This document shows positions 47,401-64,000 of a stretch of 64,000 nucleotides of DNA, in pieces. Position 1 is the first letter of the stretch, and each line of letters opens with the position of its first letter. Origin of the DNA: Lophium mytilinum (lineage: Eukaryota). The stretch is from NCBI GenBank assembly GCA_010093605.1, contig MU004199.1:868001-932000 (forward strand), read 5' to 3'. Position numbers and translations under genes: made by a program. The notes below the pieces were generated by a model, which was given only the letters and a program-made list of their open reading frames with translations, did not search any database and was not told the origin of the DNA.

Positions 47401-49257
47401 CCAAGCGCACGTCTACTGGCAGTATATCAAGGGCGGGAAACTGAAATGGTGGTTCATTTTGGTTGTCACCATGTCATCATATCGCGTTCTCGATCTCGCA
47501 AATACCTGGTTCATCAAAGCTTGGGGTGAGCGATACGACCAAGTCAAACAACAAGGCCTATCCGGTATTTACGATGGCCTCCCGCAGCCGGAGGATAACA
47601 TCATTCCATGGCTCGTTGTGTTCACGTTGATCCAGTTCACCATTTCTTTCTTCTTGGTCCTCACTCAAGGAATCATGCAGATCATCACCTACTTTACGGG
47701 GAAGCGGCTGTTCAGGGACGTCATGGACCGCGTAGCGCACGCATCCTTCCGTTTCTACGATATCACTCCTGTCGGCCGCCTTATGAATAGGCTCACGTCT
47801 GATATCAACACGATTGATGGGAACATTAGTGTTGGGTTTGCATCCGCGGCTTGGTCTACTATCTCTTGGATTACCTCGCTTTGCATCATTGCGTCGGTTA
47901 CTCCGGTGTTTCTCGTGTTTTCTTTGGCTCTTGCGGCGGCTTTTGTGCTCATTTTTAGACGCTTCCTTCCTACATCGCAAAGCTTGCGGCGCCTCGAGGT
48001 ATGTATGCCCGATCTCTGCTAAAGTTTGACACGCTGACAGAGTCCCAGATGGTATCTCTAAGCCCGCTCATGTCCAATTTCGGTGCTCTATTAGATGGTT
48101 TGACGACAGTCAGAGGTAAGACAATACATTTTAGCTACTCCATTGACGATTCTAACAAGACTTCTAGCGTTCTCTGCTCAGCATAGATTTCAAGAGCGTG
48201 TCATTGAAGTTACGGATAAGTTTCAGAAAATGGATCATTTCTATTGGAGTCTCCAAGCCTGGTTGACATATCGATTCGACACCCTCTCTGCATTCGCCAC
48301 CCTCATTCTTACCTTACTAGCCATCTACACCAACGTAACCCCCGGCCTAACCGCCTTCGTCCTCATCGCCGCCTCAAAATGTGCGTAACCCCAACCTCCC
48401 CCATCCCCCCATCCTAACACCCCCCAGTCGTCCTCTCAACCCACATCCTCTGCAAACAATACGGCGCCCTCCAAATGGACTTCGTCTCCGTCGAGCGCGT
48501 CGTCGAGCTCCTCTCCCTCGAAACCGAACCCCCCGGCACCGTCCACCCCCCGGCCTGGTGGCCCTCCCTCACCGGCGACATCGTCTTCGAAAACGTCACC
48601 GCCCGCTACGCGCCCCACCTCGACCCCTGCCTCACCGACATTTCCCTCCGCATCCCCGCCGGCTCCAACACCGCCATCATTGGCCGCACCGGCTCGGGGA
48701 AATCAACCCTCGCCCTCTCCCTCCTCGCGACCATCACGCCGGAAAGCGGCCGCATCTTGATTGATGACGTGGATTTAGCGACGGTTGATAAACATAAGCT
48801 GCGCCAACGCGTCACCTTCCTCGCGCAGGACCCCGTGCTCTTCCCCGGGAGCATGCGGGCGAACCTCGACCCGCTGTCCGAATACTCGGACACGGCGTGC
48901 GCGGGCGTGCTGGCGAAGATCGCGGGGCGCCACGGGTGGACGCTCGATATGACGATTGATGCTGGCGGGCGCGGGCTGAGTCAGGGACAGCGGCAGCTGG
49001 TGGGGCTGGCGCGGGCGATGTTGAGAAGGAGTAGCGTGGTGATTCTGGATGAGGCGACGGCGAGTATTGATGTGGAGACGGCGCAGCGGATTCAGCAGGT
49101 TTTGAGGGAGGAGATGAGGGGGAGTACGGTGATTACGATTGCGCATCGGTTGGAGGCGGTTAGGGGGGCGGATTTTTGTGTGGTGTTGGGGAGGGGGAGG
49201 GTGGTGAAAGCGGGAGCGGCGCGGGAAATGGGGGAGGTTGGGGGGCTGTTGGGGTAG
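44437..49257 (+). CDS. Full-length ABCC/MRP-type ABC transporter
   Basis: NBD1: [31 protein letters not shown]2: [30 protein letters not shown]. TMDs include [13 protein letters not shown]. About eight introns. Confidence 0.95.
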
Positions 49258-49319
49258 AGAGGCGGGTAGACGGGGAGGGTGTTGGGGTTTGTATGTAGGG
49301 AGATTGCTACGTGATTGGG

Positions 49320-50000
49320 ATGTGGGTTGTAGATAAGGGAGATCTCTGAAATAAGTAGGTTGTAGGTATGAAAATTTCCATGGTTCTCTTCGTAAGCTCC
49401 TTGAAGTCACGACGAGGTTTGGCACATGACTATCGCACTATGTGGGCACGTGCCTTGCTGGCCGTGTTGGACTGCGTGGGGGGAAATATCGAATTTGTAC
49501 GTAGGGAAACCCCCGACATGGTTTGTAAGTTGAGAATCTCTATTTTTCTTGTCATCTGCCCTTTCGGAGTTGCGACGAGGTTTGGGTATGAATGTCACGC
49601 TGCTTGGGCAAGCACTTTGCTAGCCGTAACAACCTTTTGGGGGGGAGATATTGGGCGTATTCATGGCGGTCACGACGCGATATGAAGGTGGTTTGTGAGT
49701 AGAGAAATCTCCGAGATGGTTTGCAAGCTACCAGTTTCTATGGTTTCGTATTATTTGCTCCCTCGGAGTTGCGTCTAGGCTGAAGCATATGAATATCACA
49801 CCGTCTGGGCACGCGGGCGGAGGTTTGAGGTTTGTACGTCTGAGGAATAGCACGCAATTGAAATGCAATTGTAGGTAGGGCAATCTCCGACATAGTTTCT
49901 AAGTATAAGAAGCTCCATAATGTTCTTACCGTCAGTATTTCAAAAGCCGCGTTAAGATTTTGGCACATGAATATCAGCACCTGCTAGCCATGCTGATTGG
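49320..50000. repeat. Degenerate tandem array, about 4 units of ~165-200 bp
   Basis: Recurring blocks (TTGTA..TAGGG.AA.CYCCGA.ATRGTTT..AAG, GGAGTTGCG, GGTTTGGCACATGAATATC, TGGGCA, GCTRGCCRT) in the same order starting near 49327, 49495, 49692 and 49868. Confidence 0.65.
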
Positions 50001-50391
50001 GAAGTTCTTTTCTTGATTCAGAGATGAAAAGCGCTTAGGGAGAGGGTCTGTCGGTGGGGATGGAACCCTAATCTCCACTATATTGAAGGTTTCAATATGG
50101 GTCAAGAGTCTTATATACCGTTTGGTACACCCCAGCGACGACAAATCTACATACACAGGCTGGCTACGTCTTCGCGAGGTATTGTAGAAAGCCATATTAA
50201 TAAGGCATCTTATTTCATTCACTGTATAGTCTCACACCTAAAACGCATATGTGCGGCCCGCTGTTGTCTGCACTGGCCCGGCCTCCAATATTTAAGGGCC
50301 TTCCCTACTTGCCGTTTGTTCCTTTCACAGCTCTTCATCCACACGACCAATTTATTAACACCCATAGCGAGTTAAGTATTATTGTAGCAAC

Positions 50392-51586
50392 ATGAACAGC
50401 ATCACTATCGATGAGGCTGCTAGCTTACGCAGTGAGCTTGCTGCACTAGAAGAGATACATTCGCAGCTACAGAATGATCGAGAACAAGTGGGAGGCCAGA
50501 AAAAAGAGCTGTGCGATCAACGAACAGAACTTTCTAGGCAGCAAGCGGAGCTTGTGAAGCAACAAGCAGAACTCGCGAAGCAGCAAGCACAATTCGCAAA
50601 GCAGGATCAGGCCCTGGGCGTACGGGAAGTTCAGATTGGCGATAAAGTCGAAGATAACCAAGCAGAGATATTGGTGAGCGATCGTCTCGATCCTTACCTC
50701 CATCTTCTTTGCCTCAAGTAAGCTGTCTAACGTTTGTGTCTGCACGTAATAGGTAATCCGGAAAAAGCTCAGGCAATATCGAGACATCCAACAGATTGAG
50801 CCGAACCCTCCACACCACGGCCCTTCCGAGACCCAGTCAATTCCGACTGTCTCCATTCAGAGAGCCGTTGCTCATATACCAGTGCAGCATTCTCCAATCG
50901 CGTCCGCATCCGACACGATTACCGTTCGGTCCACACCAGTGGCGGGATTCACCCAAAACAATCCCAAAAGACGACCTATCGATCAGTCGAAAGTTGGTAT
51001 CATTGTGATGCAAGGAGGAGGCATCTATCTCCAGCAATACGAGCATGTGGTTCAGATGGATGATGGAAGATGGGTATCACTGAAATGTCACCTCTGCGGT
51101 ATCAACGTGAACATTTCGACTGGTGGATATATGAAGGGACTACGAGGATTCAGATTACATCTCGAAAAAGCCCACGATATATCCCAGGACAGCCTTGCCC
51201 AGGCGCTAGTTCAGTGCTGTGATAGGGAACTCACTCAAACTCAGGTCGACGCTCTCCGATTGAGACTGCCTGGAGCTCCCAGAATGACCAAGTTCGGAAA
51301 AAAGAAAGATGAGGAAGGGAGAAACCTTATCGCCATAGTAAGCAGTCTGCGACTCACTTCTCAAACTGGTGAGATCGACGAACCGGCTATTGAGCAGACC
51401 GAGATCCATACTTCCAGTCCCGGACTCGTCAGCGTCGAGCGCGTAAAACGAAAGAGAGATTCAAATGAGTCGTCTGGTTGCACTACGAACATTGCAACAG
51501 ACGAAATCGTCGGTGAGGATGGTCGGAGCACCGTTCTCCAAGGTGGACACACGGACAAGAGAGCTCGCAATAACGAACTTACGTAA
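50392..51586 (+). CDS. Coiled-coil plus atypical C2H2-like zinc finger protein (further 3' exons to about 52090 likely)
   Basis: Exon 50392-50673 (heptad-rich), intron 50674-50752, exon 2 in frame with ORF 50882-51586: WVSLKCHLCGINVNISTGGYMKGLRGFRLHLEKAH and basic KRKR. A GTAAGT donor at 51583 suggests more exons. Confidence 0.75.
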
Positions 51587-52521
51587 GTCAAAACATATAC
51601 GATTGCAACTCGCTCTCCGATATCGCAAGTTTTCTACAAAATAGTCAGACGCTGATTAGCAATACAATAGACGCAGCTCACTTGGACTACGTCCGAATCC
51701 ACCCGCTACGCAAAAGGCCCTCGCTGAGTCCCACCATGACGATAACATGGGTGATACTCTGACCCAACTGGAAGAGGTGTGCCCATGCAACCTCTCAAAT
51801 CATCGTTGTTCCATGCTAAGAGGCTGTCGTATGATTAAGATCTGTACCGTAAGTACTTTGTCCTTCAAAGAAGACGATATCGGATTATCGAGCTGACATG
51901 TTGTCTCCTCATAGGAAAAGAAAGGTGATCATGACGAAACTTGCCAGCAGGACGCTCACAACATAAAGCCATCTTGCAGTACCATCAAAAGCCATAGGAA
52001 GTGTCAAGTAAAAGACTGTCAATATGGTCATGATAGGCGTCGCGCTCGGGAGAGACTCTACCATTACCCGAACGAGTGTTCTAACCATTAGGCCAGATCC
52101 GTGGAGGTTCCATATGCACTGGGAGCTATCATGGGAATTGGGGAGAGAGGCTAGGGAACACTTCAGAGGCTTTCCTGCCATGTGCGTACAAATTCGCCCA
52201 AAATTGTGGTTATGACCGGCTACCACGTGATAGATAGTGTATGTTACAATAACTACTACGTTTTAGTCGCATAACCTTTGGCAATGGAATGATTGATTCC
52301 CACTTCACTCCTTTCATCTCACCCATTGTTAAGCGAGGAACATCCACTTCACCCCCCTCAGTTCACCCTAACTTCAAGCGAGGAACAAGCACGTGCGTCC
52401 GCCCCACCTTCTTGCTTACTAACCACTCTCTTATATTCTGCAGCTTCCTGAACCTAGCTGTTGCCCACCTCCCTCACTCACTGTGCATCGTCTCATTGCG
52501 CTCAACATAGAGGCCGACGCT

Positions 52522-53393
52522 ATGGAAGAGGCGAAACATCTTCAAGGCCAGCTCGACGCCTTGGAAGTCAAACACTCACAGCTCTTGAAAGATGAGCAAG
52601 ACCTCGAAGTCCGCCAGAAGGAAAACGCGTACGAACGCGCGCGTGTGGAGCTGAAGCAATCCGTGAGTTACTCCTCACCTCTGACCTTGGGACACTGATC
52701 TTAATGACTTCGTGTCTTTAGAAACTACGGAAACAGTTGCGCGAGCTCCAGCATAGGCAGACTACGAACAGTTCCTCGAAGCCAACGCCGCTGGAGATGC
52801 CAGCCTCTGAGGAACCCCAGACCACGGACCGAGCACCGATGGAACCCGTACAACCGATCCACCAGCCAGCCGCTACCGCGTACGAATGGCCATCGGGTCC
52901 GATGAACGAGCCGCAACAAACGTTCCTCCTTGAGCGCGTCAACATGACAAAGAAGAAGAAGGACTCTTACGCCTTTTGGGATCCTGTAGATCCTGTGCTT
53001 CTTGGCATCCCCACTTATCCGATCATAGTGAGGACTCCGATGTGCCTCAACGAAATGATGGAAAAGCTGGCCCGTGGAGAATACCGCTCCGTCATTGATT
53101 TCATGAAGGATCTGGATCTCGTCGTCGACAACAGCATACTCTTCAATAGCTTGACTCACCCTATCGCGCAGCAAGGTCTAAACATGAGAGCCTTCTTCTT
53201 GAAGGGCATGTTGGCAATGCCGGGGGTACGGTCAAAGACAGCCCGCAAGCCACGCGAGATGCCTGGAGGCCCACAGAATCCCATCAACCTTGAGGAATAC
53301 TCTCCGAAGAACACTCCGGTTGACCACTCGGCAAATTATGAGTCGGATAGCTCTTACGAGGACGATGAAGTCTTGAAGGGTACCTGGTCATGA
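52522..53393 (+). CDS. Small coiled-coil plus single bromodomain protein
   Basis: Exon 52522-52662, intron 52663-52721, exon 52722-53393. Bromodomain AFWDPVDPVLLGIPTYPIIVRTPMCLNEMMEKLARGEYRSVIDFMKDLDLVVDNSILFN. Confidence 0.85.
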
Positions 53394-54199
53394 CGGCTAT
53401 CTAGCGGTAATCGGAAAACCTATCTAACAAGCCAATAGTTGAGACTCCTGATAGTTCTAGCACGAAGCGCAAGCAACTGCCAGTCACTCCTTCTCGTCTT
53501 TCCCAAACAAACCAGCGCTCCGCAACGAAGCGACGGTCAAACGCAACCACAGTGCCTATACTGGTCACATATTGCCCATGTACCGTGTCTGGACATAAGT
53601 GCGGCATGTATGGACTGTGCGACAGGATAAATCTCTGTGTCGTTAGTATCCAGCAGAACTACCCACTAATCCTGTTTTTTGAGCTAATTCGTCTCGTGGG
53701 AATAGCAAAACACCCACGACAAATACTGCCAGAACAGCACGAGCCATGAATTCCTCCCAAGCTGCCTGACGAACATTTATGCAGCTAATGGCTGCAAGAT
53801 TGAGGGGGACAGTGGCTGTGGGCTGGGTCACGACAACGCTGCTGAGCGCAAACAGATCCACGACGAGCACCTATGCGGTTCTCATTAGCTGGTAAGGGCG
53901 GATATGGGCGATAATAGTCGGACGATGAGGGGCGGTGGGGCATTTTGTAGGCTCATTGGCACGCTATGCGTGCAGTCTTTGCGTGAAATGAAAGTCACTC
54001 TTTGTTCATTACTTGACTATGCGTGCTATCAAGTGTTGCAACTTGTGCAACTTCAAGTAATCAAAGTTGAGGCACCACTATTAATGTAGTATCGAGACTC
54101 TCGCTTTTTATGTTACATTATTGACCTACGCTTCTGTGACTAAGAGTACTTCTTCAACAGAATTTAGTGGCCCTACCCTGAGGCTATTGTTCTCGCATT

Positions 54200-55215
54200 A
54201 CTGGCTACAGTACCAGGCCATAAGTCGGGGAACGCGGATTGATTACCGTTCAGCTCCCATTTGCTCACTTGACACCACTGTGAGGAGTAGCCCAGCCAGC
54301 TGATAGGCTGTGAGTTAAATAGCACTCTGATTTGTACTGCCTGGAACTTGACATCGCAGCTGGAGGTTTATAACCTTATGGGGAAACCCTAAACAGTGGC
54401 GAAGCAGTGTACCGAGCCCTCTGGCCTGTAACTGTGATCCGGCGCTACAGTACTATGCCATAAGTCTAGGCACACAAAATTAAAGATCGTTCAGCTCCAC
54501 TTTGATCCCTCGATACCACTGTAAGGGGTAGCCTGGCTGTTCGATAGCTAGGCAGTCAAGAGGCAGTGTGATTTATACTGCCTAGAACATTACATTACGG
54601 CCAGAGGTTTATAACCTTATTGGGGTACCCCAAACAGTAGCAAAGCAGTGTACCCCGACTTCTTACCCGTAACTGTGATCCGGCGTTACAGTACTATACT
54701 ATAAGTCTAGGCACACGAACTGAATACCGATCAACTCCAATATGCTTACTTGAAACCACCCACAGGAGTGGCCCAGCCAGCCCATAGGCGGTAAGTTACG
54801 TAGTAGTCTGATTTGCACTGCTTAAACTTTGACATTAATAGAACTAGGCTATAAGTCCGGGCATATGATAATATCTATGCTTTGCTCTAACTTTTCTCTC
54901 TCGGCACCACGGCTAGGGTTACCCTGGTTGCTAAACAGCCATTTAGTTAAGAGATAGTCTAATATGTACTGCCTGGAATTCGATATAGCCCATAGGACAT
55001 TGAAATCCTGTGGGGGTACCCCAAGCAGCGTCAACAAGCGGTAAATTTAAGGTCATTATTTCTGCGGTACAAGACTACAAGCCTACGCACACAAATTCAT
55101 CACTGCTTGCCTCGAATTTTGCTCATTCACTACCACTGCAGGGGATGGCCCAGCTGCTGAATGGCCAGTCAGTCAAGAGGTAGTCTGATTCGCACTGCCC
55201 GGAACTCGACATGGC
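54200..55215. repeat. Degenerate tandem array, about 5 units with ~240-bp period (unit 3 truncated)
   Basis: YTACAGTAC...ATAAGTCT/CRGGCACAC recurs at about 54205, 54445, 54686, 54845 and 55070. CACCACTGT, CCCAGC, AGTCTGATTT..ACTGCC.GGAAC and TTTATAACCTTAT.GGG recur in order. Confidence 0.85.
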
Positions 55216-55455
55216 GGCTTGCTGCGTTGTCTTACAGCCTCCGATGCCGCCTATCAGTGCGCGTGGCATGCGCTGGTCCTTCCCCTTCCCCTTCCATCCT
55301 TCACTTCACCGCTAAAAACGCCCGCATCGTTACCCATAAATTCAGTTCTGAATACTCCTCTTGAAACCACAAATTTTACCCTCAAAGAAAGGGTGACCGA
55401 GTACAACCAACTTCCAACAACCTAAACAATCTCACGAGCTTTCTGGTCCCCAAAA

Positions 55456-55608
55456 TGCCGGTTCCGGGCGAAAATCAATACGAGCCGCCGGCGGTTTTCC
55501 ACTACAGGTGCTGCGAGTGCGCTACCTGGTTGATTGGGAAGATAGGTGTGCGAGCTCCATGCCGGTGTGGACATGTACGGTGCAGGTACTGTCATGCTGG
55601 GCCTTGAG
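55456..55608 (+). CDS. 50-aa Cys-rich putative zinc-ribbon microprotein
   Basis: AAAATG start. Product MPVPGENQYEPPAVFHYRCCECATWLIGKIGVRAPCRCGHVRCRYCHAGP*. Cys spacing resembles the genes at 19.9 and 24.5 kb. Too short for the ORF track. Confidence 0.6.
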
Positions 55609-55644
55609 ATTTGGGGATAGGGGCGGGGAGGTTGGAATCTATAT

Positions 55645-56085
55645 CGTAGTGGTCAAACTGAAGCATCTCTTGGTTTGATTCGAACCTCGGAAAACTTGAC
55701 ATCACAAAGCTGGAATTATAGAAGGTTGAGTAGTGCTTCAGCCCTCTTTTCGTAGTGGTCAAATGGAAGAGTCTCTTAGCTTCATCTGAGGCCCAGGAAA
55801 CTTGAAATCATAGAATTCCAATGAGATATGTTTAGGTAGTGCTTCGAACTCTTGTCGTAGTCGCTAAGCGAAAGAGTCTCTTGGCGCGATCTGAAGTCTG
55901 GGAAACTTGACGTCATAAAAGTATATTGAGAGAAGGTCAGGTAGTGCTTCGAGCTCTTTTTTGTAATCGTCAAATTGAAGAACCGCTTAGTCTAATCTGA
56001 AGCGTGGAAAACTTGACATCACAGGATTGCAAATACAGAAGGTCAGGTAGTGCCTCGAACTTTTGTCGTATTGGTCAAACCGACA
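55645..56085. repeat. Degenerate tandem array, about 4.2 units of 105-106 bp
   Basis: CGTAGTGGTCAAA...CTCTTRG...ATCTGA...GGAAACTTGACATCA...AGAAGGTYAGGTAGTGCTTCGA recurs at about 55645, 55751, 55856, 55962 and 56067. Confidence 0.9.
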
Positions 56086-56162
56086 AATCCATACTCTTGA
56101 TTCCGAGCGCAATTCTCCAGACAACTTAAAACCCCCAATCTACACCGCCGACGCGAACATCT

Positions 56163-56896
56163 CTACTCCCGCCTCTCAACCCAGGCCCCCTCCGCATTTC
56201 GAATTCTCTTAGTAACGCGCCTCGGACGGCCCCCAGCCAGTCCCACCGGCTCCTCCACGCCTCGTTTGCGCTTTGCCGGCTGTACAACGAACGGAACTAC
56301 TCAAAATCAGCACCCGAATTCCAAGAGCCTTCAAATCACCTACCTCCATGCTTCTTGCTGCCCCGCCTCACAATCGCCCTCATCTCCCCCGGCGTAATCT
56401 TCCTATGCTCACACGCCTCCAAAGTCTCCGCCAAACTATACGCGATCCTGTGAGCGCCGCGGCGGTGCTGCGCAAACCCGCCCACCCCCTTGAGGAACTG
56501 CGTCGTGCCCTTCAGATTGGCGTAGGCGTTGGCGCCGCAGGCATCGCACCTCAGCTCCACGAAGTCATCCCCGACCCGCACGATGGTGGGCAGCCAGGCC
56601 GGGACGGAGGGCAGATTCGCGGGCTCGGGATTTGGGGTCTCGGTGACGGTGTCTGGCAGCTGGTCGGCGGCAGCGGGCTCGGATTCGGGCGGTGGGGGCG
56701 CTGCGATTGGGACGTTGTCGAGCTTGGCGAGGGCCTCCGAGAGGGTCTGACGGTCCTTCACGAGGCGCGCGATTTGGGCGTCGAGGTTGGCGATGTGGGC
56801 GCGGATCTCGGTCTTGGCGGCGTCGAGTTCGGCCTGGGTGGGGAGGGTGCTGGTGGCGGTCTCAGCGAGCGAGGGGATGGTCTGGTTGGCGGACAT
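56163..56896 (-). CDS. Coiled-coil plus atypical C2H2-like zinc finger protein, paralog of the 50392 gene
   Basis: MSANQ..., coiled coil AELDAAKTEIRAHIANLDAQIARLVKDRQTLSEALAKL, then FVELRCDACGANAYANLKGTTQFLKGVGGFAQHRRGAH. A probable intron at about 56344-56297 gives a last exon with PAKRKR and a stop at 56163; unspliced, it stops at 56336. Confidence 0.75.
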
Positions 56897-57567
56897 AGTG
56901 GCCCAGATTGTGTGAGAAGAGAGAAGATTTGAAGGTTGTGGCGATGGCGATGATGAAATTTGTGGAAAAAGCTGCGAAGCTGTGCGGTGGTGATGTCGAT
57001 AATGAGAAAGCTGAAGTGCTGGAGAGGAGGGAATTGAGATGTTTATATACGCTGGCGATTCGAATTTGGGTGCTGTATAGAACAATACACTTATTGAGAC
57101 AATAGTGGGAGAGGTGAAGCTGCAACAAGGGACTGAATAGCTATTGTTCGGGGAGCGGTGAAAATCGTGGGAACTATGGAACAGTGAAAGATCACATGTC
57201 AATGCACGCGCAGTTATCCTTCAATTGGCGTAAAAACATTCGTGATTTTGGCAACCATTATAGGAGTTGAGGGCGCCATTTAGCCTTGCGAAGATTAAAG
57301 CTGCAGATGTAGAGGAACTCAAGCGCGATATGGGACCTTTGGAACCTACGTTTTGACTGCTACTTGACAATGCTTATGGGTTCAAATTGCGCGCATGCAG
57401 TGATCAACTTGACAAGCGCAACAGAGCCTCGAAGGGCCACCGGGCCTTACGGGAAATGACATAGAAGATGTAAAGCTTGCCAGTCTCAATATTGGACGTC
57501 GGAATATCACTGCATGACTTTGATGGGAAAAGTACGAGGCAACTCCAACAATGCTAAATAAAACATA

Positions 57568-58909
57568 CTACATCTTGAACCAAGGGTGCTCTAGAACGGT
57601 TGCTGTGGAAATCCTTTCCCTGGGATCATATTTCAGCATCTGCCCGAGAAGGTCTGCTAGTACTCTACCCTCATCTCGGGGAATCGTATGGCTTTTTGTG
57701 ATGACACCGTTAAGATCATGAGTGACTCCTTCCTCCACATATTCTTCAATCGTTCTTGCACCCGACACAGACATATGCCCTGACTCGGTCATGTACGGGT
57801 CTCCATTGTCATCGAAGTAATTCTTACGCGTCTCCCAAGAAGACCACCACGGCTCAGGGAACTTTCCCAGCAATACAACCATTTGCCATTTAGGGTCCTC
57901 TCCGTCCCCTTCCCAGTCACGGAAAAGCCGTCTTGTGGTCCGGATCTCGGAAAGGGTACAAGCGAGAGCCCAAAGATCACTCGCTTGGCTGACTATGCTG
58001 CCAATCAAGAGCTCAGGCGCGCAATAGGCAGTCGGGGTCCCAAGCTCCTTCGGAGGATTAGATGTTTCGAACGATTCACCGAAGTCGACTACCGCTATCT
58101 GGTCTTTGAAGTATTTGCGATCCACGTTGCGGTCCCAGGCTATTGGTGCCACGACGTATTTTGGAGCGGCTGGTTCGGGCTCTTCACCCGATTTGGTATA
58201 CACTTCAAAGGACTCGGGCTTTCCCAGTGCGTGGATTAGCTCTTCCTCGTTAAGATGGTCCAGAGAGGAAATTTGGAGCAAGATGTTTGCAGGCCGAAAA
58301 TCTGGAATCCAAGTCAGTCAAATTTACTAGATATTAAAAAGAAGATACTGGGCACGAACCACCGTGGCCTAGACCATTGCTATGTAAGGCATGGAGTCCT
58401 TTAGTGGCGTGTAGTGCGATGTTCCTCAGGGACCTTTCGGGACTTTCAAACAGGTCCCAAGCCTGGTCAACCCGGGGGCCAAAGACAGGAAGAACCAGAC
58501 AAAGATGCCGTCCATTCGGCCCATCAACCCAAAATTGATGCTGCGGCAACCCGAGCCCGTCGCATCCTTCTAATTTGGTCATTTTCAAATCGGCGCAGTC
58601 TTCGCGAGATTGATCGGCCGCGATGATCTTTACAGCCACGTACTTTTCCATTTCACGATCTCGACAAAGCCATACGGTCGCCAATCCCCCGGCTCCAAGT
58701 TTGTGAACAACTCGGTACCGGCCTTCAAGCTCGTCCCCAAGAAATACTGGGTGGAAACCACCTTCGCAGTAGTCTTCTAGGTCTTCGATCCCATCGATAA
58801 AACATGACTGATATCGTCTTCCTTCCAAGGGACCATCGACGGAATTGTCGGCGCCTTCTAGAGACTCCAAGTCGTCGGGACTAGGCGATATCGAGGAATG
58901 GGTTCCCAT
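57568..58909 (-). CDS. SRPK-like (CMGC) protein kinase of the expanded fungal type
   Basis: EDYCEGGFHPVFLGD, VHKLGAGGLATVWL, VAVKI, HG|DFRPANIL across one intron, DFGES, YCAPE, SDLWALAC and LKYDPRERI...HPWF. Confidence 0.92.
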
Positions 58910-59661
58910 CTCGTCCGCTAGAAAACTTTACGATGCGAATTGAAGAAAGAGCCGCGTAGAATCCTACTAACGTCGTCTGACAGGCTTTTTCGCCCAAGAT
59001 ACTCATGTGCAATCTGAAGAAAAGGCTTATACGTCCTACGCAGAATGTGAAGAGATATCTGTTGGCGATGGACAGAAACAGTGCTGCTATGTCAGGAAAA
59101 GTAGACCTCATGAAGTTGAGAACAGCCGAGGCAACGCAACTATGCGCCTCATGAGAGAGCTTCCGTATATGACAGACGGAAAAGAGGCCTGGCATAAATG
59201 CTTTGCGCATATGTTGCAACTTGGCAGCAAAGACTGGAGCCGCTGAGGTTGATTTAGCCTACAACAATAGCACCGCGCTAACACGATCAGTTCTAGCGCC
59301 ATCTCAATCTCGACCCCTACGAACCGCCTCTTATTTTAGGGACAGCACAAAGGGATTGGAGAACTATTTTGATGACCTTGATAAGAGTGGGAGGTGATGT
59401 TGGGCCTTCAAGGAAATCGGATTGGAGTTATAAGAGGTGGTAAGCACGAAATTCCACTCGAAGGGGTTTGCACTCCAAATATTAGAGCCTTTCGTATCAA
59501 TTATACTACAATAATTGAGTAGGCTACAGAGACTTGGACGTCTTCGTGTAATCGAACCATGTCCGTAGACACCTTGAACAGTTCACCTACTAATGAATTA
59601 CGCGGCGCGGCGTGTCTCCCTTGGAGACTTCACCACGTAGTCTCGTAGTATCACTACTTAA

Positions 59662-59740
59662 GCACGGGATTTAGTATTACTCGCTCGACACCGGTTCGAG
59701 GAGCGTTCCAGGTATTGATCATCCGATTGAGCTAACGGGA
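59662..59740 (+). repeat. Short divergent copy of the dispersed ~240-bp family
   Basis: CGGGATTTAGTATTACTCGCTCGACACCGGTTCGAGGAGCGTTCCAG versus CGGGATCCAGTCTTGCTCGCTCGACACCGCTGTGAGAAGTCGTCCAG at about 5905-5951. Confidence 0.55.
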
Positions 59741-60758
59741 TATCTGATCTCAATTGCGATAGCCATCGTCTCCTTAATTCTCAGAGCCCACAGAGTTGCC
59801 TCCAGCAGCGATAGAGAAATATAGCCCACCTAGCTCGCTGTCGTATAAGATGATTTAGCCTAAACAGCACATTGGTATTACTTTTAGAGGAGTATAATAT
59901 CCAATCAGGTGCCTCATGGGCACTTGACGAATTTTTATTTATAATCTAGCTGAGTTGGGCCACTGTGTACACTGGTCTATCAACTGTCCGAGGTACCCCA
60001 ATGAACTCTCCTTATCTCAAGTCCGACAAAAGCCTTTTATTCTGAACACTGGATCAGCCTACCAAGCTACCTCAGACGGCGCTGTCTTACAGAGAAGAGC
60101 TATGATCAGACTAGTGCTCATTGCAGAAATGTTCTGACGAGATCAACCGTCTATCAGCGATGCTATCATGTCCCTGTCCACAGATACCACCAAGCTCTTG
60201 AGCGTAACACTCATTCTGTTCGAGGAAGCTAACGCAAGACGGGAGGAAGTCGTGCTTTTCCGAAGCGGGGCACTCTACGTCGTGAATGGATCGCTGCCAG
60301 GAAACACAGATGAGCGAAGGCACTCATTCAATTATATGCATTTTGGAACACTTACCAGGCAAAGCTTTGGCTGGCTGCATCCTCCGTACATGCCACACAA
60401 GTGGCCTGTCATATTGCAAGGGCAGAAATCGCCGAGTTTCAACAGCGGCGTCGAGGGACTGGATGCATTGTCGATCGGAGTGTTCGGCGGGAGCTTTGTA
60501 GGCTTAGGGGACCTAAAAGACCAAAGTTGTTAGTATGTATTCGTTGAAGTACGTAACATAGTACTAGGCTAAAATCTAGCCGCACTATCTGCTATAGCTT
60601 TAATGCTTTCGAAAGATGAGCACCACTACAAGGAGTATTTCGTTACAAATAAATCTGCCAGTCCGGAGGCAGCTCTGGTTACCCTGCCAAAACCTTGATA
60701 TCGTGCCTAGATCTGGTGAAAGCTAATGGGGATGCCTCAAGCAGTGAATAACGAGTGA

Positions 60759-61130
60759 TCACAGACTTATAGTCCGTCTGTAGCTGATATTTAGCTGTTG
60801 TGGCTTTACATACTCTTCATGGAGGCCGACTCTTTCAGCTAGGCGTGGTTTCAACATAATACATTGAATGGCGCAAGGCATTGAGCTTACACTTTTCTGG
60901 CGATCGAGCTCGTCCGTCTCGTCGATTAGCTTCTTCTCCTTAGCAACAAACTCGGTCTGCAATATCTGGATCTGCTGCAGGGGGACGAAGTCTAGGCCGA
61001 ACTCGTCCAGTAGGTCCTTTTGCGCCTTAACAAACGCCTCTTGTAGATTCTTTTGAGCTGTAGCCTTTTCCTGCATCGCCCGATCTAGGCGATCAAGCTC
61101 GCCGCGGAGGACATCTGCGTTTTGCGACAT
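60759..61130 (-). CDS. Small coiled-coil hypothetical protein (3' structure uncertain, possibly truncated)
   Basis: MSQNADVLRGELDRLDRAMQEK... heptad pattern. GTAAGC donor after RQKS at about 60890. Downstream exons not resolved. Confidence 0.5.
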   Translation of the reverse strand: MSQNADVLRGELDRLDRAMQEKATAQKNLQEAFVKAQKDLLDEFGLDFVPLQQIQILQTEFVAKEKKLIDETDELDRQKSVSSMPCAIQCIMLKPRLAERVGLHEEYVKPQQLNISYRRTISL

Positions 61131-61837
61131 GGTTCAAGACTATGAACGGCAAGAAGTGCCGGAGGCAAAGATGGAGTGACTGGGTAGTAAGCAACGCGCG
61201 AATAAGAATCGCGGCTTGCGGGGCGCTAAGATATTCTAAGCGAGGCACGTGCCAGATATGTATGCTATGGAAATGGTATGACCGGAGTTCTCCAGGGAAA
61301 TACGCAAGACAGGTTCGCACTAGGGCACAAGATAAAACTCTAGAGCGTTGAACTAAAGCTAGGATTGTCTAGCACATTTGAAAGTCTAAAAACTTAGCGC
61401 GGATTGGTAGCCACCGAGCGTAGCACCTCCTTGGTAGTATAAGAGTTCACACGGGAAGACAATTCTGTTCTGGACTGAACTTTACCGGCTCGAGCTTAAT
61501 CTACTATGAGCACAGTACTACAAGGCGTTATTTGCACAAAAACAGCCTTGTTCAGCGACTACTTTGTAGCTTGCATTGCGCCACAAGTCACCGGACGCGC
61601 GAATATCCGTAACCGACCAAGATCTGCCAGCCTTCTCTACTATTCGACGTATCGCGAGCCTCGTATGCAGCCGACAGCTCGGAAGGGACCTTGGCATTAT
61701 TGTCTTGCTATCTTTAAATCCCCACGTTTCCCAAGCCCCCAAGTCCTCTCTTTTTCAGCCTTGTCGCCATTTGCAAAACGTCCTTTTCCCTGAGGAGCGC
61801 CCCATGCGGTAGAGACGTTTATCAGCTCTCTAATGCC

Positions 61838-62722
61838 ATGGCTGCTTCCTTTTTCTTAGTAATATGCATTGCTCTCGCTAGTTTTACCCACAGCCTCCAA
61901 GTCGACACGACCTCAGCCTACGTTAATCTCGAATAGCGCCTACGAAAACCTCGTCCTATACGTATCGACCACATCCGGGGAAGCAGACGTAGTCCTCTCC
62001 GACATCGCCTCCGCAGGCGACGGGAAATACTGGTACTTCGATATTTCAGGCTCCACCTACGCTATTACGCCGAAATCGTTCCCAGCCTACCGCCTGGACG
62101 GCCATTACTACAACAAGGTCCCATACCTCAGCGTAGCAAGCACTCTGCTGGGCGGGCAGGTATGCACATTGACACGTGGTCGGATGGGTCGTACAAGCTT
62201 TGGCAGGACTGCTGTGGTGATGGCTTCACGCTTGCGGCGATGAGCAATAGGAGGACAACGAATGTAACTGAGGGGAATGACGATTCGCACCGGTGGTCGC
62301 TGGCGGCGAGTTCGACTACTTCGAGCGTATCGAGCACATTAAGCGCATCGTCCACATCAACTATAACTTCAGCCTCATTAACGTCGTCAAGTGCTCCGAT
62401 AATCCCGACTTCAGCATCGCAGACGGCGTTGCCGACCGTAATTCCATCTCCAAGCCAGTCGAGTTCCACGAAAAACGGCGGGCTGTCCGCGGGCGCGAAG
62501 GGCGGTATTGGTGCCGGCGTCGGTGTGGGAGCCATCCTATTCATAGTACTAGGCTTTATAGTCTGGAAAAAACGAAAGAGGACAGGCGATGGAAGCCTCG
62601 AACTTCCCGAAGCGCATCCACAACCAAGTCATAGTGACCAGTACGAGCATGGGATAGCTGGTGGGCGCGCGAAATTGGAGGCCCCTAAACCAGCTTGGAT
62701 GTCTTCATACGGAGGAGGCTGA
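61838..62722 (+). pseudogene. Frameshifted type I membrane protein: signal peptide, beta-rich (ricin-B-like) ectodomain, Ser/Thr stalk, TM helix
   Basis: Signal peptide MAASFFLVICIALASFTHS stops at about 61936. The sequence continues in ORF 61869-62243 (ISNSAYENLVL...GGQ) and then in ORF 62162-62722 (HIDTWSDGSYKLWQ...GLSAGAKGGIGAGVGVGAILFIVLGFIVWKKRKR). Two 1-nt shifts at about 61924 and 62163. Confidence 0.65.
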
Positions 62723-63454: not shown

Positions 63455-64000
63455 TCACAACTTTGGCTTCGATATGATGAACGAGTTTCCCTTCTGCAGC
63501 CACGAGACGGCATCTCCAACCAGCTCGTCTACGATGGCCTTGGCGCTCTTCTTCTCATTAACAACGGCAGCAGCCTTGCCCATGAGGAACGGACGGGCGT
63601 TGTCCATAGTCTCGTCATCAATATCGTCGCCCATCTTTTCTAGGTCGTGCTCAGCGGGGATGATACCCTTGCCTGTTAGCTCCTTGATTTCCTGCTGCCT
63701 GTTCTCTTCCCAATTCGCGATGTATGGGTTGGTGCGCACTCGGAGCGGCCGGCCGGTGAAAATAATTGTGCGAACGTTGTCATCAAAGCCAGAAGTGCGG
63801 ACGGCTTCTTGGTGGGCTTTCGGGGCGCCAGCCTCCTCTGACAGAATGAAGCGTGTGCCGATCCAAACAGCGGAGGCGCCGAGCATTAGCGCAGCAGCGA
63901 GAGATTGGCCGTTGTAGAGACCGCCAGCAGCGATGATCTGTACCTGGGCACCAGTCATAGGTGACTTATGACCCTTAACGAGCTCGACAACGGCCGGGAT
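63455..64000 (-). CDS. Nitronate monooxygenase / 2-nitropropane dioxygenase family FMN enzyme, 3' part
   Basis: IIAAGGLYNGQSLAAALMLGASAVWIGTRFI, RTIIFTGRPLRV and PFLMGKAAAVV. Runs off the window end. Confidence 0.92.
   Translation of the reverse strand: MPAVVELVKGHKSPMTGAQVQIIAAGGLYNGQSLAAALMLGASAVWIGTRFILSEEAGAPKAHQEAVRTSGFDDNVRTIIFTGRPLRVRTNPYIANWEENRQQEIKELTGKGIIPAEHDLEKMGDDIDDETMDNARPFLMGKAAAVVNEKKSAKAIVDELVGDAVSWLQKGNSFIISKPKL

Follow-up and report, generated by a model that had tools for sequence, protein, structure and literature searches.

We describe four neighbouring genes, A, B, C and D, which are clustered within 11 kb of fungal nuclear DNA and interrupted by short GT..AG introns. 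They lie in a 64,000-nucleotide stretch of the Lophium mytilinum genome (contig MU004199.1, positions 868,001 to 932,000), referred to below as the window and numbered from its first letter. We consider it fairly likely that these genes represent a Dothideomycete-restricted family of probable nuclear zinc-binding proteins, which arose by tandem duplication with replacement of the middle segment. The defining module of the family is a C-terminal tail of about 85 residues, rich in Cys and His, that is shared by A, B and D. Between the shared ends, the middle of the proteins varies: it holds a finger domain in A, a bromodomain in B and nothing recognisable in D. A preliminary description of this DNA had placed the shared module in the first exon. 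This exon is indeed homologous in A and B, but the far stronger shared module is the tail of A, B and D, which had been missed. The suggestion that the genes are lineage-specific agrees with our data, as the family appears lineage-restricted and has so far been found only in Dothideomycetes.

The tail is encoded by two exons and has 15 invariant Cys and His residues, found in the same order in A, B and D; gene C is without it. The first half, located at the end of the penultimate exon, follows the pattern C-x-C-x4-H-x-C-x4-5-C-x5-C and contains six of the invariant residues. A phase-0 intron splits the tail at the same residue in all three genes, one residue past the sixth ligand. The second half, in the last exon, has the pattern H-D-x2-C ... 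H ... P-S-C ... C ... C-x2-G-H-D ... R, with C-x2-H at the extreme C-terminus; in five exon-4 sequences the invariant columns are H, D, C, H, P, S, C, C, C, G, H, D, R, C and H. When whole tails of A, B, D and a protein from Microthyrium microscopicum (see below) were compared, the six Smith–Waterman pairs scored 123–218, against about 31 ± 6 for shuffled sequences, and none of 1000 shuffles reached any of these values. The halves are also detectable separately by tblastn within the window. E values among the exon-3 halves are 3e-8 to 2e-6; for the exon-4 halves they are 7e-10 to 2e-10 between B and D and 2e-3 to 3e-3 between A and B, and the pair A–D gives no match at E < 1.

The core of the exon-4 half resembles CCCH fingers (C-x7-8-C-x4-5-C-x3-H). 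Its spacing is canonical (x8, x5, x3) in two proteins retrieved from a protein collection, P0004 and P0005, near-canonical in A (x8, x4, x3) and longer in B (x10, x7, x3) and D (x9, x8, x3). In P0004 and P0005 it matches that of CCCH proteins (C-x8-C-x5-C-x3-H), including the ascomycete tandem-CCCH families PF25543 and PF25542. Unlike these families, the tail has about 10 extra conserved Cys/His residues around the core, and the spacers of B and D are longer. No CCCH family of Pfam (PF00642 and kin) matched the exon translations or the proteins P0002, P0004 and P0005 at E ≤ 1, and a profile of the tail had no match among PDB sequences at E ≤ 10. The language-model neighbours of the tail in the ESM Atlas all belong to CCCH families (scores 0.75–0.82), which we treat as a lead only. 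The tail could hold three to four zinc ions, and its ligand pattern suggests that it binds zinc and nucleic acid.

Gene models were built by reading both strands and then joining the exons by their coordinates. The start peptides of A (50392), B (52522), C (56896) and D (61130) were located at the positions given in the preliminary description. Genes A (488 amino acids, aa) and B (394 aa) are on the plus strand, the start of B being 430 bp 3' of the stop codon of A. Genes C (228 aa) and D are on the minus strand; gene D spans 61130 to 60111, and its final two exons (60512-60356 and 60293-60111) are clear. All exons of gene A are open and bounded by canonical GT..AG sites, and its intron 2 has a single in-frame acceptor, which is the one used in the model. 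The model of gene C is letter-identical to the hypothetical protein BU16DRAFT_598445 of L. mytilinum, a Dothideomycete (P0001). The parts of the four genes are as follows.

50392-50673, plus strand: gene A exon 1, N-terminal coiled-coil-like segment of 94 aa, followed by a phase-0 intron (50674-50752).
50753-51582, plus strand: gene A exon 2, linker and finger domain, with a phase-2 donor GTAAGT.
51047-51265, plus strand: finger domain of gene A, C-x2-C-x20-H-x4-H and a helical extension with conserved Cys and Arg.
51671-51848, plus strand: gene A exon 3, linker ahead of the first tail half (51759-51848); the next intron is in phase 0.
51915-52091, plus strand: gene A exon 4, remainder of the tail, including C-x8-C-x4-C-x3-H, and stop codon.
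52522-52662, plus strand: gene B exon 1, N-terminal coiled-coil-like segment of 47 aa, followed by a phase-0 intron (52663-52721).
52722-53379, plus strand: gene B exon 2, linker and bromodomain, with a phase-1 donor and intron 53380-53438.
52944-53174, plus strand: bromodomain of gene B, BET-like (Pfam PF00439, E 4.9e-16).
53439-53641, plus strand: gene B exon 3, basic linker ahead of the first tail half (53555-53641); the next intron is in phase 0.
53706-53888, plus strand: gene B exon 4, remainder of the tail and stop codon.
56344-56896, minus strand: gene C exon 1, encoding a helical N-terminus, a linker rich in Pro and the finger domain (56372-56584).
56163-56296, minus strand: gene C exon 2, basic C-terminus that resembles a nuclear localisation signal; the Cys/His tail is absent.
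60814-61130, minus strand: putative exon 1 of gene D, helical N-terminus, with an alternative donor GTAAGC at 60890.
60356-60512, minus strand: tail-bearing exon of gene D, with the first tail half encoded by 60356-60445; the next intron (60294-60355) is in phase 0.
60111-60293, minus strand: last exon of gene D, second half of the tail and stop codon, matching the stored protein model P0002.

The N-termini of A and B are alike over the whole N-terminal region. Their Smith–Waterman score is 91, compared with 38 ± 6.6 for plain shuffles (reached by 0 of 2000) and 52 ± 7.7 for shuffles that keep the residues of each heptad position (0 of 5000). With the first exons alone, three of 5000 such heptad-preserving shuffles reach the observed score, which bears out the claim that these two exons are more alike than unrelated coiled coils. 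The heptad periodicity of gene A exon 1 is matched by 13 of 1000 shuffles. The resemblance between the two N-termini exceeds that given by coiled-coil composition. As had been reported, intron 1 is in phase 0 in both genes, with GT..AG ends, and the first residues of exon 2 are V-IRKKLRQY in A and K-LRKQLREL in B. The similarity crosses the intron into the start of exon 2, where five of 16 residues are identical in register.

Genes C and D have helical N-termini with weak heptad periodicity. Both genes had been counted as looser members of the family by their first exons, and the comparisons do not sustain this: the score of C is reached by 67 of 2000 shuffles against A and 80 of 2000 against B (not significant or marginal), and that of D by 426, 987 and 378 of 2000 against A, B and C, respectively (not significant). 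For C and D in relation to A and B, the N-terminal likeness could accordingly be that of any coiled coil. Extended to the whole cluster, this explanation would make the four genes otherwise unrelated neighbours. However, it is refuted for the pair A–B by the heptad-preserving shuffles, and the homologies of the tail and of the finger are independent of the coil, so that we give it almost no credence.

The preliminary description had attributed the gene family to classical exon shuffling, in which a shared first exon was recombined, through a phase-0 intron, with exons for different domains. The position of each variable domain, wholly inside exon 2 and flanked by introns in both A and B, is consistent with such an origin, as is the phase of intron 1. 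However, the similarity between A and B continues beyond intron 1 and, after the variable part, does not reappear until about the last 30 codons of exon 3. Exon 2 has the phase combination 0/2 in gene A and 0/1 in gene B; it therefore lacks the symmetry of a cassette, and the breakpoints fall within exons 2 and 3. Because A and B share both ends, duplication followed by internal replacement fits better, and strict exon shuffling appears improbable. The modular nature of the family, with different domains between shared ends, is borne out.

The middle domain of gene A is also found in gene C (tblastn E of 2e-7 and 3e-6 within the window), with similarity over about 75–90 residues. This confirms that a C2H2-like finger is present in A and that the same finger occurs in C, with an unusual spacing. 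The pattern is C-x2-C-x20-H-x4-H in A, with x23 in place of x20 in C, and is followed by a downstream helix with invariant Cys and Arg; classical C2H2 fingers (PF00096 and kin) have C-x2-4-C-x12-H-x3-5-H. No C2H2 model of Pfam matched the fingers of A and C at E ≤ 10, or the proteins P0004 and P0001 at E ≤ 1. When an alignment of the two fingers was searched against PDB sequences, only noise from TAL-effector repeats was obtained and no stretch passed; searched against proteins of 101–483 aa by a word-indexed method, an alignment of A and C retrieved only the gene C protein itself.

The predicted structure of the finger (predicted local distance difference test, pLDDT, 69; predicted template modelling score 0.60) is a beta-hairpin followed by helices. 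It has no match in the PDB by Foldseek at E ≤ 0.001, and a comparison with solved structures (VIA) gave 24 chains with Z ≥ 2 and none with Z ≥ 5. In the ESM Atlas, the finger of gene C has as a neighbour an unnamed cluster of 193 ascomycete proteins at a template modelling (TM) score of 0.80, again a lead only. It also superposes, at TM scores of 0.52–0.53, below the bar for naming a family, on clusters carrying PF25909, the Ahc1-type C2H2 finger (ADA histone acetyltransferase complex component 1). PF25909 differs from the fingers studied here in that its hidden Markov model matches neither those of A and C (E ≤ 10) nor P0004 (E ≤ 1), and the unnamed cluster is nearer. We regard the finger as a putative Cys2-His2 domain of about 90 aa that belongs to no described family.

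The spacing C-x2-C-x20-23-H-x4-H resembles that of BED fingers. Together with the tandem repeats present between B and C, it could point to a domesticated or active set of mobile-element genes, for example with a BED-like transposase finger; the preliminary description had likewise raised the idea of a selfish element. The searches speak against such an origin. The zf-BED model (PF02892) was unmatched at E ≤ 10 by the fingers of A and C and at E ≤ 1 in the other Pfam scans, and no transposase model was matched. There are no inverted repeats in 49300-62000, and tblastn revealed no further copies of any module elsewhere in the 64-kb window. A mobile-element origin is thus very unlikely, and the selfish-element idea is not retained.

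The middle domain of gene B is the bromodomain that had been announced. Exon 2 scores 58.9 bits with PF00439, for which the cut-off is 21.7 (E 4.9e-16; positions 7–81 of the 84 in the profile), and this is the sole Pfam match above cut-off among the 12 translations of exons and open reading frames (ORFs) that were scanned. Among solved structures, the C. glabrata chain 8r6i_A is nearest (6.3e-16), and chains designated BRD4 and Bdf1 come next. The functional residues of the acetyl-lysine pocket are the Tyr of the ZA loop (P-x-Y) and the Asn of the BC loop. Both the P-x-Y and the F-N motifs are kept in gene B, where IPTY and LFN are aligned to IPLY and KFN of 8r6i_A. By its closest chains (8r6i_A, BRD4 and Bdf1), this bromodomain is like those of the bromodomain and extra-terminal (BET) proteins, such as yeast Bdf1 and human BRD2/3/4. 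The overall architecture is different: BET proteins have two tandem bromodomains and an extra-terminal domain, whereas exon 2 of gene B has a single bromodomain stretch, none of the gene B exons matched an extra-terminal domain in the Pfam scan at curated cut-offs, and the bromodomain is flanked by a coiled coil and the Cys/His tail. BET proteins are not known to have such flanking segments.

Relatives in other genomes were searched for with a profile of three exon-4 peptides against 1,835,955,588 protein representatives. There were four matches at E ≤ 1e-3, of which three are true (P0002, P0004 and P0005); the fourth, P0003, is a repeat artefact. P0002 is the stored model of the gene D tail, and P0005 is an unnamed ORF of 73 aa that resembles exon 4. 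P0004 is the hypothetical protein BT63DRAFT_131833 (KAF2672604.1) of Microthyrium microscopicum, 416 aa long. It was found through the tail alone and also carries the finger twice (BLASTP 3e-10 and 2e-5 against C; 5e-12 and 7e-4 against A). It is like gene A in having the same C-terminal tail, the same finger, here in two copies, and basic runs between finger and tail. It differs in having no bromodomain, in coming from another Dothideomycete order and in an annotated model that starts within a finger: residues 1–61 begin inside the domain, with the first residues at the second Cys of C-x2-C. This gene model probably lacks its true 5' exon or exons. Compared with PDB sequences, P0004 gave nothing below E 0.6.

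Since P0004 holds both the finger and the tail, this architecture appears to be conserved between two Dothideomycete orders, from which we infer that gene A is the conservative form and that the bromodomain gene B is derived. A word-indexed search of longer proteins with the exon-4 alignment found none. In a metagenome scan with the alignment of the B and D exon-4 sequences, one of 59 pattern matches passed tblastn (L001); it was judged a chance match because it is on a high-GC contig, in the frame opposite a long ORF. A literature search for the locus tags and accessions did not find them, and no relevant title was present among the matches listed on bromodomain, CCCH or coiled-coil proteins in Dothideomycetes.

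RNA evidence was taken from the contigs of one public run, X1, whose kind is a guess. These contigs skip 52663-52721 and 53379/80-53438 of gene B, with GT..AG ends, and one of them passes from exon 2 into the tail-bearing exon 3, up to 53556. This shows that gene B is transcribed and that two of the three introns in its model (introns 1 and 2) are spliced out at the predicted positions. No X1 contig is on A or D and there are almost none on C, which is uninformative about the expression of these genes. For gene D, P0002 provides a partial check: the splice predicted here for the intron that splits the tail is the one used in that model. P0002, a 79-aa Lophium protein (60111-60400, minus strand), begins at an internal Met of the tail, and the first two invariant Cys residues are missing from it; it is therefore probably 5'-truncated.

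These observations can be combined in a sequence of events. The finger with the tail would be the older architecture, as the Microthyrium protein shares it, and a tandem duplication would have given rise to A and B. In the lineage of B, a bromodomain-coding segment would then have been substituted for the stretch between early exon 2 and early exon 3. The proteins would enter the nucleus by means of KRKR-type basic runs between the middle and the tail; the presence of these runs in the translations suggests nuclear localisation, and a basic linker resembling a nuclear localisation signal sits upstream of the tail. The N-terminal helix may dimerise. The tail, with three to four zinc sites, and the finger may bind nucleic acid, chromatin or a protein partner, and the protein of gene B would additionally read acetyl-lysine.

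The coiled coil and the tail, with four zinc ions, might also act as a common, lineage-specific scaffold, on which B and A, and perhaps C and D, would co-assemble as a hetero-oligomeric reader of acetyl-lysine and nucleic acid, the latter bound through two zinc domains that belong to no described family. We consider this extension improbable. If it were true, the assembly would constitute a chromatin or RNA regulator private to some Dothideomycetes; if the members do not co-assemble, the cluster is a case of ordinary duplication with domain replacement.

Several points weigh against a zinc-binding family formed by duplication and replacement. Neither the finger nor the tail is matched by any zinc-finger model of Pfam, AlphaFold gave no usable model of the tail (pLDDT 38), and the solved neighbours of the finger model are weak, the best being the Kaiso zinc finger (Z 2.9), with AFV1p06 at Z 2.5. 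The direction of the domain replacement depends on a single outgroup protein, and the tree of five tails is saturated and unresolved. The link between exon 1 and the tail of gene D is ambiguous: 626 stop-free paths with one or two introns were enumerated. The best-looking path needs an intron of 301 nucleotides, compared with 47–88 for the other introns; this candidate has a GTATGT donor at 60813, a TACTAAC branch site and a TTTTAG acceptor at 60513, and the alternatives to it rely on weak acceptors. Finally, no protein of 101–2000 aa in a collection of 5.8 billion clusters contains exon 2 of gene A, so gene A is unannotated, and it could be a silent or decaying copy.

The last two points would also fit a birth-and-death cluster, in which functional genes are limited to B and C, A and D being silent or decaying copies, and there is no functional system of four members. 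Gene A is missing from the public protein collection, gene D is known only from the 79-aa model that starts inside the tail, and its upstream link requires an unusually long intron. Against this, the exons of A are all open, with canonical splice sites and a unique in-frame acceptor for intron 2, and both genes retain all 15 invariant Cys/His of the tail. Such a history is unlikely, and tandem duplication of a finger-and-tail gene, with replacement of the middle segment in B, is the reading that we prefer.

Under this reading, the cluster illustrates cleanly how one scaffold can bear a zinc finger in one paralog and an acetyl-lysine reader in another. It includes two putative zinc-binding domains, the finger and the tail, that match neither Pfam models nor the sequences of solved structures. 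Annotated relatives are nearly absent, with three true matches in 1.84 billion representatives. The public annotation of the L. mytilinum genome omits gene A and truncates gene D. Short 3' exons of this kind readily escape annotation, and the number of family members in fungi may therefore be underestimated. We regard the family as undescribed and real, and as a modest evolutionary curiosity.

The genes that flank the cluster are ordinary. Upstream is the C-terminal ATPase domain of an ABC transporter (48418-49257, plus strand; 1.4e-28). Downstream are a nitronate monooxygenase (63455-64000, minus strand; 1.1e-21) and a gene for a Ser/Thr-rich membrane protein. A protein kinase gene unrelated to the family is located between C and D (57568-58927, minus strand; Pkinase at 3.5e-14 and 4.2e-6 on two exon ORFs), and its intron 58302-58359 is confirmed by an X1 contig of 1584 nucleotides.

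The interval between B and C contains several repeats. A direct repeat of 241 nucleotides is present in two copies with 77% identity (54238-54719 and approximately 54137-55070). High-depth X1 contigs over this region show back-joints and loose ends running into unlike sequence, and the region looks like a transcribed dispersed repeat family. A tandem array at 55638-56059 is composed of four units of 105/106 nucleotides, with 66–74% identity to the reference copy. A small ORF at 55365-55607 (plus strand) encodes a dense run of Cys and His, C-C-x-C ... C-x-C-x-H-x-x-C-x-x-C-H, with no Pfam match at E ≤ 10; near it, in the bin 55071-55537, the depth of the X1 contigs is 11.4.

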